Assembly (NCBI GenBank): GCA_951406725.2
Contig: OX597838.1
Span: forward strand, 22,382,001-22,446,000
Direction: 5' to 3'
From: Octopus vulgaris
Lineage: Eukaryota
Length of the DNA stretch: 64,000 nt
Shown here piece by piece: positions 788 to 62,147 of this stretch. Within the stretch, counting starts at the first letter, position 1. Each line of letters starts with the position of its first letter. The notes under the pieces were generated by a model. The model had not been told where the DNA came from. It worked only from the letters and a program-made list of their open reading frames with translations, and did not search any database. The position numbers and the translations under genes were made by a program.

Positions 788-975
788 AATGAAAGAATGG
801 AGTTGAACGACGAATTAACAAAATTCCTTTATTTTGATTTTGACATATGTTTCGAAGGCTGCATATTCCTAATTTCGAAGGAATAAGGGGTGCATTATGC
901 CGCCTTCTCATCAGGAAAAGTAAGGAACTTATGTCAGCATCCAGATGCACAAAAACTTTTCATTCAACTACTCAA
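788..975 (-). mobile_element. Short Penelope-terminus-like element carrying a hammerhead ribozyme, nested in the TA tract of a SINE A
   Basis: Complex sequence bounded by (TA)n; homologous to 8621-8756; contains the hammerhead at 826-925. Confidence 0.7.
826..925 (-). ncRNA. Minimal type I hammerhead ribozyme motif
   Basis: Minus strand: CUUUUC-CUGAUGA(914-908)-GAAGGCgGCAUA...UAUGCaGCCUUC-GAAA(853-850)-CAUAUG-UC; palindromic stem III, GUC triplet; stem I imperfect in this copy. Confidence 0.75.
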
Positions 976-1508
976 TTATATATATATATATATGTATGTA
1001 TGTATGTACGTATGTATGTATGTATGTATGTATGTATGTATGTATGTATGTATGTATGTATGTATGTATGTGTGTGTGTGTGTATATGTTTTTGTGTCAG
1101 TGTTAATCCCCCCCCAACATCACTTGACAACCGATGCTGGTGTGTTTACGTCCCCGTATCTTAGTGGTTCGGGCAAAAAAGAGACCGATAGAATAAGTAC
1201 TAGGCCTACAAAGAATAAGTCCTGGGGGTCGATTTGCTCGACTTAAGAGCGGTGCTCCAGCATGACTACACTCAAATGACTGAAACAAGTAAGAGTAAAA
1301 GACTAGATGAATGAATTTAATAAAAGCATCTAAATATGAAACGTAATAGAAATTGTTCAAACCGAAGTTCTTTTTGAACGACAGATTTTTTTCCATTCGA
1401 GTCAATACTGAATTACAGATAGTACTTATGGAATTTGTATATACTGTTGGGTGACTTCTGGTGAAACCTGTATATCATTCTTTTTCTAATTGCTATAGAT
1501 ACATATGT

Positions 1509-1890
1509 GGGGGCGCAAAGGCCCAGTGGTTAGGGCAGCGGACTCGCGGTTCATAGGATCGCGGTTTCGATTCCCAGACCGGGCGTTGTGAGTGTTTATT
1601 GAGCGAAAACACCTAAAGCTCCACGAGGCTCCGGCAGGGGATGGTGGTGATCCCTGCTGTACTCTTTCACCACAACTTTCTCTCACTCTTACTTCCTGTT
1701 TCTGTTGTACCTGTATTGCAATGGGCCGGCCTTGTCACTCTCTGTGTCACGCTGAATATCTCCGAGAACTACGTTAAGGGTACACGTGTCTGTGGAGTGC
1801 TCAGCCACTTACACGTTAATTTCACGAGCAGGCTGTTCCGTTGATTCGGATCAACCGGAACCCTCATCGTCGTAACCGACGGAGTGCTTA
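1509..1890 (+). mobile_element. tRNA-derived SINE family C, full length
   Basis: A-box-like GGCCCAGTGG and B-box-like GGTTTCGATTCC; near-identical to 47464-47848; flanked by duplication TAGATACATATGTG (1496-1509 / 1895-1908). Confidence 0.9.
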
Positions 1891-1909
1891 CCCTTAGATA
1901 CATATGTGT

Positions 1910-2165
1910 GGAGGCGAGTGGCTTAGTGGTTAGGGTGTCAGCATCGTGATCGTAAGATTATGGTTTCGATTCCTGGATCGATCGATACGTTGTGTTCTTG
2001 AGCAAAACACTTCATTTCACGTTGCTCCAGTCCACTCAGCTGGCAAAAATTAGTAACGCTGCGATGGACTGGTGTCCCGTCCAGCTGGGGAACACATACG
2101 TCATAGAAACCGGGAATCCGGGCCCATGAGCCTGGCTAGGCTTTAAAAGGGCGCATTTATTTTAT
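1910..2165 (+). mobile_element. tRNA-derived SINE family D
   Basis: A box TGGCTTAGTGG, B-box-like GGTTTCGATTCC, body GTGTTCTTGAGCAAAACACTT and CTGCGATGGACTGGTGTCCCGTCCAG (recalled as conserved SINE central-domain motifs), (TTTA)n tail; related head at 50294-50420. Confidence 0.8.
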
Positions 2166-2209
2166 TATTTTATAAATACATATGTATGTATTGGTAATAA
2201 TGCATTGAA

Positions 2210-2495
2210 ATCGTAGAATCATTAACACGGCAATTTTTCCGGCTTTTCCGAGTTCAAATTCCACCAAGGTCAACTTCCACAAAGTTTCCGTCTAGCAAAT
2301 TCACTCAGAGGTTATTTCTTAAACCAGGTCTATAAAAAAAAGACATTTATCCAATCGACTTTGCCTTTCATCCTTTCGGGGTGTCGATTAAATAAGTATC
2401 AGTTAGTCACTGGGGTCGATGTAATCGACTTAATACCTCTGTCTGTCCTTGTTTACTCCCTCTATGTTTAGCCCCCTGTGGGCAATAAAGAAATA
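2210..2495 (+). mobile_element. SINE family B (Nin/Deu-like central domain) with Tx1-LINE-like tail, rearranged
   Basis: GAGTTCAAATTCC B box; GACTTTGCCTTTCATCCTTTCGGGG..TCGAT..AATAAGTA core; tail TGTTTAGCCCC.TGTGGGCAATAAAGAAA. Confidence 0.8.
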
Positions 2496-2552
2496 TATAT
2501 ATATATATATATATATATATATATATATATATATATATATATATATATATAT

Positions 2553-2740
2553 AGGAGAATTCACAAAAAAGTACAAAAGATGAAGACGGGTGGTGTAGAC
2601 AACAAACAGATGTATTAGTATAATGCTCGGGAAGTGAAAAAGTCTTTAAAGTTTCGAGCTTAAGCTCTTCCACAGAAAGATGCACAGAAAGAAACAAGGG
2701 GAGAAAATAAAGAATGTGTAGTGGCTAGCGATCTAACAAA
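2553..2740 (-). mobile_element. Short repeat with variant hammerhead-like fold (family of 18378-18612)
   Basis: Reverse complement aligns to 18420-18605; UCUUU-CUGUGGAA-GAGCuuaaGCUC-GAAACUUU-AAAGA. Confidence 0.65.
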
Positions 2741-2904
2741 GTAAAGTTGTAAGATTGGGGGGGGGGGCGCTTGTTTTGTACACAGAGAACTAAGTGACCA
2801 CTAACATTTTCTTATTATTATCAAAGAATGTATATATGTATTTTAATATATATATATATATATATATATATATATATATATATATATATATATATATATA
2901 TATA

Positions 2905-59514: not shown

Positions 59515-59602
59515 ATTATTATTATTATTATTATTATTATTATTATTATTATTATTATTATTATTATTATTATTATTATTATTATTATTATTATCATTAT
59601 AA

Positions 59603-59913
59603 ATGCACTGATGCGATACCAGTCGAAGACCTCTCGAGGCTTCTGATCTTATTAAATTATTGGAAGTGTTATCATGTACATTATTTTGTCTTGGTGTGAA
59701 AGATAGGCTACATCAAATATTTGGCTCAATACCGCAGATTTGCTTGTCATTTGCTTGACCTTAAGTAGTTGAGCACGTACCTTGGTGGCTGACGATATGT
59801 GCATCTCTGATGACGAATAGGTGTAGTGTGGGAGCATCATAACCTTAGTTCACTGGTAGTGAACAGCTGAATTTGTAGTACATCTCTAACGTTAGAAGCT
59901 GTGCAAAGGCAAT
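59603..59913. mobile_element. Chimera of the 28427 element (inverted) and the R4/Dong-like 3' UTR
   Basis: 59640-59841 is reverse-complementary to 28749-28945; 59842-59913 ACCTTAGTTCACTGGTAGTGAA...GAAGCTGTGCAAAGGCAA is reverse-complementary to 57966-58036. Confidence 0.75.
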
Positions 59914-59929
59914 AACAACAACAACAACA

Positions 59930-60073
59930 TGTAAAAGCGGTAATTGATGCTAAAGGAGGGTCAACCAGATATTTTGAAATATACCATAATCTACCATGAG
60001 CACGAGTTTCATTAACATCGAGATAGCAGAAACACAAAACATTGGTGTGACCTAATACTTTTGGCCATGGCTG
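59930..60073 (+). mobile_element. Tc1-like transposon 3' end
   Basis: CKAVIDAKGGSTRY (Tc1 C-terminal motif), then TIR GGTGTGACCTAATACTTTTGGCCATGGCTG and TA. Confidence 0.85.
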
Positions 60074-61218
60074 TATGCATGTATGTATGTATGTATGTAT
60101 GTATGTATGTATGTATGTATGTATGTATGTATGTATGTATGTATGTATGTATGTATGTATGGATGTATGTATGTATGTATGGATGGATGTATGTATGTAT
60201 GTATGCATATATGAATGTATGTGTGTATGTATGTATGTATGTATGTATATATTTATGTATGTATACATGTATATATGTATTTATGCATGCATATATGAAT
60301 GTATGTGTGTGTACGTATGTATGTATGTATATATTTATGTATGCATATATGTATGTATGTGTTCGTGTATATATGTATTTATGTGTGTATGTGTGTATGC
60401 ATGCATGTGTGTATGTATGTATGTATGTATGTATACATGCATGAATGAATGTACGTATGTATATATTTATGTATGCATATATGTATGTATGTGTGTGTAT
60501 ATATGTATGTGTGTATGTATTTATGTGTGTATGTATTTATGTATGCATATATGTATGTGTGTATGTATGTATGTATGTATATATGTAGGTATGTACGTAT
60601 GTATGTATGTATGTATGTATGTATGTATGTATGTATGTATGTATGTATGTATGTGTGTGTGTATGTATATACGCATACATGTATATACATATTTTCTAAC
60701 TCTGGTATCCTTAACTCTAATATTTTGATATTACTTTCCCAATTCTATTAATGCAATTGCACCAAATGCCCAAATCCTGCCATGCATAACTATACATGTA
60801 CAACTGCGCACTTTGAAACTGAGCAATAGGGGCGTTTGACAAGTCATGTGTGATTGGAATCGATATTTTCAAAATGGCCGTATATTCGCCAATAGATATT
60901 CGCCAATAGGTATTCGCCGTAAGGAGTACTGTAACGTCACCAATGCACTCACTAACCGAAATTTCCACAGTTCATTTTTGTTTTTTGTTTGGTCATTTTT
61001 TGTTTTGTTTTGTTTTTTTTTTTGTTTTTTGGTATCATAAATTTTGCTCTTCCGTATTGATGATTATATTACTGTGGTAATAATATGCAGCTTCTTAACC
61101 CTTGTTGTTGTTGTTGTTGTCGTCGTCGTCGTCGTTGTTGTTGTTGTTGGTGTTGTTGTTGTTGTTGGTGTTGTTGTTGTTGTTGTTGTTGTTCATACAG
61201 TGTTGTTATGTACATATA

Positions 61219-61335
61219 TTGGCCTGCTCGCTTAGCCAGCGGGGTGGCGTCATTCGAAGGCTAAAACAATGCGAACGCATTGTGACCAGCGATGTGTAAC
61301 AACATCTGATGACCTGGTCGGTCACGTGATCACGC
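61219..61335 (+). mobile_element. Isolated alternative SINE C tail
   Basis: Matches 8172-8285. Confidence 0.8.
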
Positions 61336-61352
61336 GATATACATATATATAA

Positions 61353-61621
61353 TATGGAGTTGGAAATAGCACAGAAGTGAATCTAAAACATTTCAGTTTA
61401 AGAGAGAATTTAATAAAAATGATTTTAAAATATTATATAAAGAAAACATTTACCGGTTTCAATGGGTCTCATCGTATCAAATTTTTACAGATATTTGATA
61501 AGATAAGATACATCGAAATCAGAAATATTTTCTTTATATAATTTTCTTAAAATCATTTTTATTAAATTCCCTCTTAAATTGAAATGCTTTAGACTTACTG
61601 CTGTGCTATTTCCACGACCAT
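61353..61621. repeat. Diverged ~100-bp inverted arms with a degenerate hammerhead-like spacer
   Basis: 61353-61451 vs 61523-61621; minus-strand spacer CGAUGAGACCCAUUGAAACCGGUA. Confidence 0.7.
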
Positions 61622-61840
61622 CTTTTATATATAAAAATTTGATTTGTATAGATCCCTAATCGTTTTTCAACTATATGCATAGCTGCTGACCTCCCCTGTT
61701 CGAAGGTTATAACGGACACAGATTTGTCTATCACACAGCTAGCTAGAGGCGATAGACTCTTGGAGCTAACCAACGGCAGCATTCATCCTATATTCCTGGA
61801 CTGCCATGTTAGTTTTGATTTCCTACATATACAAAAAAAA

Positions 61841-62147
61841 GCATTATTTACATTATTCACATTTGACGAATATTTGTCCTCATCTTCTTTGTTGTTAACA
61901 CAATGTTTCGGCTGATATACACTCCAGCCTTCATCAGGTGTCTTGGAGAAATTTCGAACCTGGCTTCTCATTCCCAAGGTACTTTTCCATTTTGTTATTA
62001 TTATTATTATTATTATTATTATTATTATTATTATTATTATTATTATTATTATTATTATTATTATTATTATTATTCAGGTCACTGCCTGGAATCGAACTCG
62101 GATTCTTGGAGTTGGTAGCCCGCTGTTAACCACTACGTCACATGCCC
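61841..62147 (-). mobile_element. SINE family E: tRNA-like head, (AAT)n spacer and hammerhead-bearing tail
   Basis: Head GGGCATGTGACGTAGTGGTTAA...GAGTTCGATTCCAGGCAGTGACCTG (62147-62075, A and B boxes); tail contains the hammerhead at 61942-61897. Confidence 0.75.
61897..61942 (-). ncRNA. Minimal hammerhead ribozyme motif (extra A after the core)
   Basis: GACAC-CUGAUGA-A-GGCUG-gaguguauau-CAGCC-GAAA-CAUU-GUGUU; ACAU is plausibly CpG-decayed ACGU. Confidence 0.7.

Follow-up and report, generated by a model that had tools for sequence, protein, structure and literature searches.

Minimal type I hammerhead motifs in a genomic window of Octopus vulgaris are likely remnants of Penelope-like elements and include a family with U at core position 6

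Eight minimal type I hammerhead motifs, six named in a preliminary description and two additional ones, are present in a window of 64,000 nucleotides of Octopus vulgaris (contig OX597838.1, positions 22,382,001 to 22,446,000), which is the whole stretch of DNA analysed here. The motif observation is real and far above chance, and the motifs are most probably (roughly 0.85) minimal type I hammerheads near the ends of remnants, truncated at the 5' end or short and non-autonomous, of several families belonging to the Penelope-like elements (PLEs). Such elements with hammerheads and (TA)n targeting have already been published for Octopus (Craig 2021), and the observation is therefore mostly known: it confirms an established pattern for a further lineage, with a density that agrees with the known octopus PLE load.

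The window was scanned for the type I pattern stem I, CUGANGA, stem II, GAAA, short stem III, UH and stem I. An initial strict scan gave one site only. A relaxed scan retrieved all six named sites as type I folds, as had been proposed, at ranks 2 to 7 among 12 hits, together with one site ranking first (43955-44005, minus strand) and one ranking eighth (2648-2675, minus strand). At a score of at least 9, a cut-off picked after the hits were known, the window has 8 hits, compared with a mean of 1.1-1.5 in two sets of 200 dinucleotide shuffles (maximum 6-7), with a mean of 1.2 for 100 decoy cores (maximum 5), and with no hit in the reversed window sequence. The view that such short motifs simply arise by chance in AT-rich, hairpin-rich repeats can draw on this relaxed scan, since shuffled sequences yield 6-8 hits at any score, and up to 7 at a score of at least 9 in one of 200 shuffles. 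Against it, a fixed descriptor without palindrome scoring finds 5 hits versus 0.06 in shuffles, and 7 versus 0.12 if position 6 may be A or U, neither count being attained in any of 300 shuffles; S5, one of the families introduced below, escapes this descriptor. Compensatory changes between two related families and the pattern of variation within family S2 likewise speak against chance. Because of the fixed-descriptor excess over shuffles the chance reading is refuted, its probability being next to nil. A family at 20.3 and 42.2 kb also contains a CUGANGA box and was rejected, as it could not be fitted by eye to a hammerhead fold of type I, II or III.

The eight sites represent seven families, S1 to S7, and the elements and their relatives in the window are the following:

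790..975, minus strand: S1 element of 185 bp between TA runs, with hammerhead core 842-914, long helix II and 8-nt palindromic stem III
8587..8755, plus strand: second S1-family copy with both ends as in S1 and a 6-nt palindromic stem III, its hammerhead disrupted by an internal inversion and a deletion
18410..18612, plus strand: S2a, copy of a very high-copy family, with hammerhead 18490-18517, U at core position 6, an additional A following A9, 4-bp helix II and 4-nt palindromic stem III
2553..2740, minus strand: S2b, second S2 copy, with hammerhead 2648-2675, U6 and (TA)n at the 3' end
49965..50048, plus strand: 3' fragment of the S2 family without hammerhead, within TA repeats
31975..32162, minus strand: S3 element between (TATG)n runs, with hammerhead 32015-32084
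40045..40660: S4 head-to-head inverted pair between TA runs, with arms in 40200-40659 that are 96% alike, an intact motif at 40265-40338 (minus), a plus-arm motif (40524-40594) without G12-A13-A14, and a one-sided extension of about 155 nt on the left arm
41345..41605: S5 head-to-head inverted pair, with motif 41471-41521 (plus), a partial motif on the minus arm, a stem III of 9 nt as in Hydra-clade PLEs and a one-sided right-arm tail of about 33 nt
20488..20565, plus strand: fragment of the S5 family that has lost its middle with the hammerhead and carries a short 5' piece in inverted orientation
61838..62145, minus strand: S6 left arm, made up of a head with Pol III-like A and B boxes (62075-62142), an (AAT)n stretch and a body with hammerhead 61902-61937
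62150..62400, plus strand: S6 right arm, with an A box only, (AAG)n, a body start as in the left arm, the hammerhead deleted and a one-sided tail of about 27 nt
43760..44272: S7, absent from the preliminary description, with hammerhead 43955-44005 (minus) between inverted arms (43767-43870 and 44076-44179, 95% alike), TA runs on both sides and a one-sided tail of about 90 nt

The core boxes CUGANGA and GAAA as well as U16.1-H17 are exact at six of the eight sites, and the other two, both of family S2, have U instead of A at position 6, so that the CUGANGA-like core described earlier stands with this exception. As proposed, the core is flanked by closing helices on both sides, helix I and helix II, except that in these copies the first helix I pair of S1 is mismatched and helix II of S5 is weakened. 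The short palindromic stem III also holds in part: it is perfect in 4 of the 7 fixed-descriptor hits (versus 8% of shuffled hits) and near-perfect in S5 and S7, but the S6 and S2b copies are not palindromic. Dimer MFE structures are double hammerheads with an intermolecular stem III for S1, S3 and S7, whereas at the other five of the eight sites no clean double hammerhead is obtained. The claim of at least six dissimilar families is borne out by number, but not all of them are independent, since local alignment relates S1 (826-925) to S4 (40257-40346) with z=17.8 and, weakly, to S3 with z=5.5. Among 15 stem pairs compared between S1 and S4, two sequences only, four show double changes, including the centre of the palindrome, nine are the same and two are broken.

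All eight motifs lie 40-220 nt from an end of their element, in agreement with a place in the 3' pseudo-LTR of a PLE, and about 4.8% of the window consists of these remnants. At 6 of the 8 loci a TA run follows within 230 nt downstream, which holds for 29% of unmasked positions drawn at random (p about 0.009, with a post-hoc cut-off), and TA endings occur in other repeats of the window, too. The TA microsatellite setting therefore applies to most loci but not to all: S6 lies outside TA repeats, and S2a and S3 adjoin (TATC)n and (TATG)n, respectively. Several inverted repeats had been noted, and there are indeed four head-to-head pairs with a one-sided tail (S4, S5, S6 and S7). An inverted 5'-truncated copy at the 5' end with a one-sided tail is the PLE signature (PMC8557442) and is present at all four inverted loci; the tail length published is 30-40 bp, and two of the four, those of S7 (about 90 nt) and S4 (about 155 nt), exceed it. 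S7 was also considered as a MITE and rejected because its right arm lacks a TA duplication and because of the one-sided extension of 90 nt.

The motifs compare closely with those known from metazoan PLEs, which have an extra nucleotide after A9, G10.1-C11.1, a short helix I and a palindromic stem III, and which occur as many families per genome, mostly in single copies and partly as pairs on opposite strands with a distance of 100-700 bp (PMC4209133). Common to both are the type I topology, the base after A9, G10.1-C11.1, a short helix I with a long helix II, a palindromic or absent stem III, dissimilar families, truncated single copies and opposite-strand pairs (PMC4209133). They differ in that the helix II inserts of S1, S3 and S4 (51-55 nt) exceed those in the rows of Fig. 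S3 of PMC4209133. None of these 56 rows is from a cephalopod and all 56 have A6, which the descriptor used there requires, in contrast to U6 in S2; Lunse, Weinberg & Breaker 2016 may list cephalopod examples as well as A6 variants. A bias for insertion into microsatellites or (TA)n is known for the PLE clades Hydra, Naiad and Neptune, and Hydra-clade PLEs, among them Hydra-1_Obim from Octopus bimaculoides, prefer (TA)n and carry the hammerhead in the last 100-200 nt, with a 4-bp stem III and a loop of 0-2 nt (PMC8557442). The (TA)n flanks, the hammerhead near the 3' end and the form of stem III are shared with the elements described here, and the 9-nt stem III of S5 is identical to that of Hydra-2_aMil and Penelope-16_HM (PMC8557442). 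The Hydra-1_Obim motif as published is not among the families found here, and six short motifs, one each for S2 to S7 and none for S1, had no match in the supplement of Craig et al., in which line breaks could hide one.

PLE membership is thus likely, judged from these features, and it is inferred since the window holds no reverse transcriptase (RT) or GIY-YIG ORF: neither domain was found among all 149 unmasked frames of at least 55 amino acids. Such an absence is expected of short remnants, but it leaves every element here unconnected to a PLE ORF; no upstream ORF was seen at the loose ends of S2-bearing contig assemblies either, and the window contains no full-length copy. Following the PLE literature, a parent element would carry two motifs, one in each pseudo-LTR of a partial tandem, and their palindromic stems III would pair to form a double hammerhead by which the transcript is cut. 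The PLE would nick (TA)n by means of its GIY-YIG endonuclease; its RT would begin to copy at the 3' end of the RNA, often break off prematurely and add a copy in inverted orientation, which would leave just the last 200-300 nt including the ribozyme in most insertions. Most single copies in the window are predicted to be inactive, because a tandem partner is lacking and several cores are broken. PLEs constitute 6.83% of O. vulgaris with 190 families, and the hammerhead density would simply reflect this load. The dense, diverse and TA-biased population of hammerhead retroelements suggested earlier is accordingly supported, but it is no new population, since it matches what Cervera & de la Pena (2014) and Craig et al. 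(2021), the latter with an Octopus family, have already published on the remnants of PLEs.

The preliminary description had also pointed to retrozymes, and metazoan non-LTR retrozymes have to be weighed against PLE remnants. Retrozymes are tandem repeats that do not code for proteins, carry type I hammerheads of the canonical form and spread via abundant circular RNAs. Like the elements described here, retrozymes are non-coding and short with type I topology, and they occur in molluscs (mussel) and are thought to use the PLE machinery (PMC7229834). Retrozymes, however, form tandem units of 170-400 nt with canonical motifs and abundant circRNA (PMC7229834), whereas none of the eight motifs overlaps tandem repeats of any period up to 2000, head-to-tail repeats of 150-450 bp included. 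Moreover, no Rfam match in the whole window reaches its gathering score, including any hammerhead family, and the best 150 of 466 matches at E<=1 are driven by microsatellites or hairpins only, all under the gathering score. The architecture is minimal and not canonical type I, and the long helix II of four families together with the short helix I is of the minimal PLE type that PMC7229834 distinguishes from retrozyme motifs. A retrozyme identity is thus largely refuted for this window and very improbable.

The elements had furthermore been regarded as non-autonomous, and most families could be true SINE- or MITE-like units with fixed ends and their own transcription, copied in trans by PLE enzymes, rather than products of truncation. 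S1 and its copy at 8.6 kb have both termini in common in different flanks, S2a and S2b begin at similar points, and S6 has the only A-box/B-box pair with tRNA-like spacing of the window (at 62140, minus strand, the B box 43 nt past the A-box start), which is partly and symmetrically repeated on the other arm. By the consensus box patterns used, the A box has one mismatch on the minus arm and is exact on the other. On the other hand, fixed ends are supported by only two copies for S1 and one locus for S6, neither Rfam (E<=10) nor ARAGORN gives a tRNA match for the S6 head, and the two arms of S4, S5 and S7 end at different truncation points. As a general explanation such units are therefore rather unlikely, and dead insertions truncated at the 5' end are the better reading of the four inverted pairs with their one-sided tails; for some families, namely S1 and perhaps S6, a non-autonomous nature can hold and is compatible with the PLE remnant reading. 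For S6 there is a parallel in the SINE-like Sm-alpha and Sj-alpha elements of Schistosoma (PMC6765202), in which a Pol III promoter is followed by a hammerhead, as suggested here, but these are tandem with canonical motifs, whereas in S6 the motif is minimal and of the PLE type, and it belongs to an inverted pair that has a tail on one side only. A search of metagenomes with the S6 pattern gave three contigs, which are GC-rich and of prokaryote or phage type, gave no BLAST hit against the masked window sequence and were set aside as unrelated.

Family S2 is an unusual A6U variant, a predicted ribozyme amid an otherwise known phenomenon. In each DNA-type sequencing run 8,452-20,947 contigs align to it, and it is common to four species labels; a pattern search of metagenomes returned no contig. 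For one further run, possibly of RNA, no circular joint was listed, an outcome that carries no weight either way. A natural change at position 6 is known from the A6C hammerhead of phage Bcep176 (PMC3088659, PMC7151607), which differs in having C at a single phage locus and a preference for Mn2+, whereas S2 has U in a mass repeat family. The chances are about even that the U6 motif of S2 is a catalytically dead relic, which spread without cleavage and whose position 7 reflects subfamily drift. In line with this, changes of A6 are reported to cut activity strongly, the kobs of A6C being under 0.1 per min (PMC3088659) and its activity very low in Mg2+ (PMC7151607), and Naiad PLEs have spread without canonical hammerheads (PMC8557442). 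In addition, the greater conservation of core over flanks expected by the preliminary description is, in S2 as the one family examined, suggestive but not significant, with 0 variable of 11 non-CpG core places versus 25 of 153 in the flank (estimated p about 0.15). Position 6 is U throughout the aligned contigs, while the free positions 7 and 17 vary. What argues against a dead relic is that N7 alone of the 32 variable places shows all four letters, that H17 changes between allowed letters only, and that the helix II pairs are retained while loop 2 changes. We suggest, tentatively and from sequence patterns, that S2, among the most abundant repeats of the genome, might be a working dimeric A6U hammerhead selected across many masters, with N7 and H17 free and the rest fixed, which descriptor searches would miss, and that S6 might be a Pol III-headed SINE using the Penelope machinery via its hammerhead tail.

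A PLE-mobilised SINE, if true, would be a new pairing of a SINE with its partner, of which a phrase search of the literature found none. The role of PLE hammerheads is still debated, and Craig et al. ask whether they merely parasitise PLEs (PMC8557442). Should U6 cleave, the consensus of the core would have to be widened, and with it every count obtained with descriptors; if it does not, cleavage would be dispensable for the success of PLEs.

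The preliminary description had named six minimal hammerheads at 826-925, 18486-18521, 32011-32088, 40257-40346, 41466-41526 and 61897-61942 (repeat loci S1, S2a, S3, S4, S5 and S6, respectively), and all six are among the 8 best of the 12 matches that a relaxed type I hammerhead scan gave on both strands of the window. The same scan added two:
43955-44005, minus strand, hammerhead of locus S7
2648-2675, minus strand, hammerhead of S2b, the second window copy of family S2
At a score of at least 9, a cut-off fixed post hoc, the 8 matches compare with a mean of 1.5 (maximum 7) in 200 block-wise and 1.1 (maximum 6) in 200 whole-window dinucleotide shuffles, and with a mean of 1.2 (maximum 5) for 100 decoy cores. 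A fixed descriptor in which palindromes earn no credit, and which does not recover the S5 motif, gave 5 matches versus 0.06 in shuffles, and 7 versus 0.12 when U was also accepted at core position 6 (U6). These counts were reached in none of 300 shuffles, and in this comparison the density is well above that of shuffled sequence. An Rfam search of the window gave zero matches reaching the gathering score. The claim of a mostly palindromic stem III holds in part, with perfect palindromes in four of the seven real fixed-descriptor matches versus 8% of the shuffled ones.

At all sites the motif lies 40-220 nt from an element end. Four loci are head-to-head inverted pairs with their 3' ends facing outward, and one arm of each is extended by a tail:
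S4, one-sided arm extension, about 155 nt
S5, one-sided arm extension, about 33 nt
S6, one-sided arm extension, about 27 nt
S7, one-sided arm extension, about 90 nt
The hammerhead core is deleted or broken on the second arm in S4, S5 and S6. The proposed preference for (TA)n is seen at six of eight loci, which have a TA run within 230 nt (the rate at unmasked positions picked at random is 29%; p about 0.009 with a post hoc cut-off), and fails for S6 and S2a. Family members without an intact motif are:
8587-8755
20488-20565
49965-50048
Together the remnants make up about 3.0 kb, or 4.8% of the window, which has 36% GC, is masked as tandem repeat to about 40% and contains Tc1 and LINE fragments; neither an RT nor a GIY-YIG domain was found in any of the 149 unmasked frames of at least 55 aa. 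A transcript of the inverted pair at 40200-40659 (460 nt, 96%) would fold into a long hairpin, and this pair accounts for microRNA-family hits below the Rfam threshold. Other short inverted repeats, at 15177-15326, 51230-51472 and 61343-61632, have no hammerhead motif.

The feature is real, and we infer, with a probability of about 85%, that it represents remnants of Penelope-like element (PLE) families bearing hammerheads. Most of this pattern is already known. Animal genomes each contain thousands of minimal hammerheads in many dissimilar families, mostly single copies derived from truncated PLEs with some pairs on opposite strands, and their activity is low and restricted to dimers (Cervera and de la Pena, 2014, PMC4209133), a description that fits the motifs of this window. 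An inverted copy with a tail is a PLE signature, and the Hydra clade, including Hydra-1_Obim of O. bimaculoides, combines (TA)n targeting with 3' hammerheads (Craig et al., 2021, PMC8557442). The 9-nt stem III of S5 is identical to that of two Hydra-clade rows in the supplement of that study. Six short motifs taken from the window, one each for S2-S7, gave no match there. In O. vulgaris, PLEs reach 6.83% coverage, and 31 of their 190 families have been active recently (PMC13282606, in the text of which the word "ribozyme" is absent), and 235 Hammerhead_1 loci are listed for the giant squid (PMC6962438). Given these precedents and the octopus PLE load, the claimed dense population of ribozyme retroelements stands as to density, one motif per 8-10 kb, but requires no new element class. 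The suggested kinship with retrozymes fell on both counts: retrozymes are tandem with canonical hammerheads (PMC7229834), whereas no motif of the window lies in a tandem array and none is canonical, which makes them a very unlikely identity.

The motif, its position, the inverted pairs, the tails and the TA bias are the observed part of the proposed PLE mechanism. The transcript of a tandem parent element would be cleaved as a dimer, an endonuclease would nick a (TA)n target, and target-primed copying would start at the 3' end, terminate early and invert. The majority of copies are predicted to be dead, because S4, S5 and S6 each lack an intact core on their second arm and because oppositely oriented arms give no same-strand partner. 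Of the proposed non-autonomous elements, S1 may be one, since both its ends are common to two copies in different flanks. Co-folding of two copies gave a double hammerhead as the minimum free energy structure for S1, S3 and S7, and not for the other five sites. The families are sequence-dissimilar, as described, in 25 of 28 pairs; besides the S2a-S2b pair, the exceptions are S1 and S4, alignable over 140 nt (z=17.8), and weakly S1 and S3 (z=5.5). Among 15 base pairs compared between S1 and S4, both sides are changed in four, including the palindrome centre, nine are the same and two are broken. In the S1 copy at 8.6 kb stem III is reduced in length with its palindrome retained.

The left arm of S6 consists of a head, (AAT)n and a body, and the right arm of a partial head, (AAG)n and the same body start. 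The head contains the only A/B-box pair in the window and gave no match to tRNA models. A fair reading of this one locus is a putative SINE mobilised by a PLE. Schistosome SINEs that combine Pol III and hammerhead are a precedent for such a combination (PMC6765202); a literature search by titles found none on a PLE-tailed SINE.

SINE-like families are otherwise abundant (self-comparison clusters of 29 and 10 intervals, e.g., 548-714, 1094-1315, 2355-2492) and appear similar to repeats of Octopus; the commonest likewise has a short hairpin and then a terminal (TA)n. Another TA-ending repeat has two copies, 20318-20478 (minus) and 42187-42347 (plus), with CUGANGA boxes that are unlike at N7 only. 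Behind the box come a short hairpin and GAAU in place of GAAA, and a second GAAA box lies upstream; by eye no hammerhead topology fits. The minisatellite at 21609-25119 (70-bp unit, 50 copies, 96% matches) contains no hammerhead motif. At 15548-15937 (minus) lies part of a Tc1-type transposase, with a broken frame (HTH_Tnp_Tc3_2, E 4e-10). A LINE 3' end with zf-RVT (E 2e-9) occupies 17328-18210 (plus), and its 3' part recurs at 34620-35153 (minus). Repeated fragments amid (TAA)n runs at 28431-29129 and 57968-59909 have frames without Pfam match, which by eye we take to resemble a restriction-like LINE endonuclease (Dong/R4-like). Beyond the window and unrelated to it, the phage-like metagenome contigs L001 (292-327) and L002, of identical sequence, contain hammerhead core boxes whose flanking sequences may form base pairs.

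Sequencing runs under four coded species labels contain a stretch of the window. At 80% likeness, four runs gave 20,947, 19,346, 8,452 and 4,612 contigs that align to 18350-18630 of family S2, where depth does not equal copy number. Variants at 3% or more occur at 32 places, of which the free core position N7 (18494) is the sole one with all three other letters (jointly 27-57% by depth); at H17 the share of A is 72-90%. Coverage is deep at position 6 (18493), where no variant is listed, and U6 is therefore family-wide; S2b likewise has U6. The remaining motif variants (G12 2-4%, stem III 4-11%, helix II, loop 2) are all on CpG dinucleotides. None of 11 non-CpG core places varies versus 25 of 153 in the flanks, which is not significant (p about 0.15, an estimate). 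By comparison, A6 is found in all 56 rows of Fig. S3 of Cervera and de la Pena (PMC4209133) and in all 34 rows of File S2 of Craig et al. (PMC8557442), both with a descriptor that demands A6, and changes of A6 reduce hammerhead activity (PMC3088659, PMC7151607). Our literature search found no paper on a hammerhead A6U catalytic core; Lunse et al. (2016) may cover such variants. That the U6 ribozyme of S2 is active and under selection appears rather unlikely to us. The novelty of the case rests on the A6U core carried throughout family S2.
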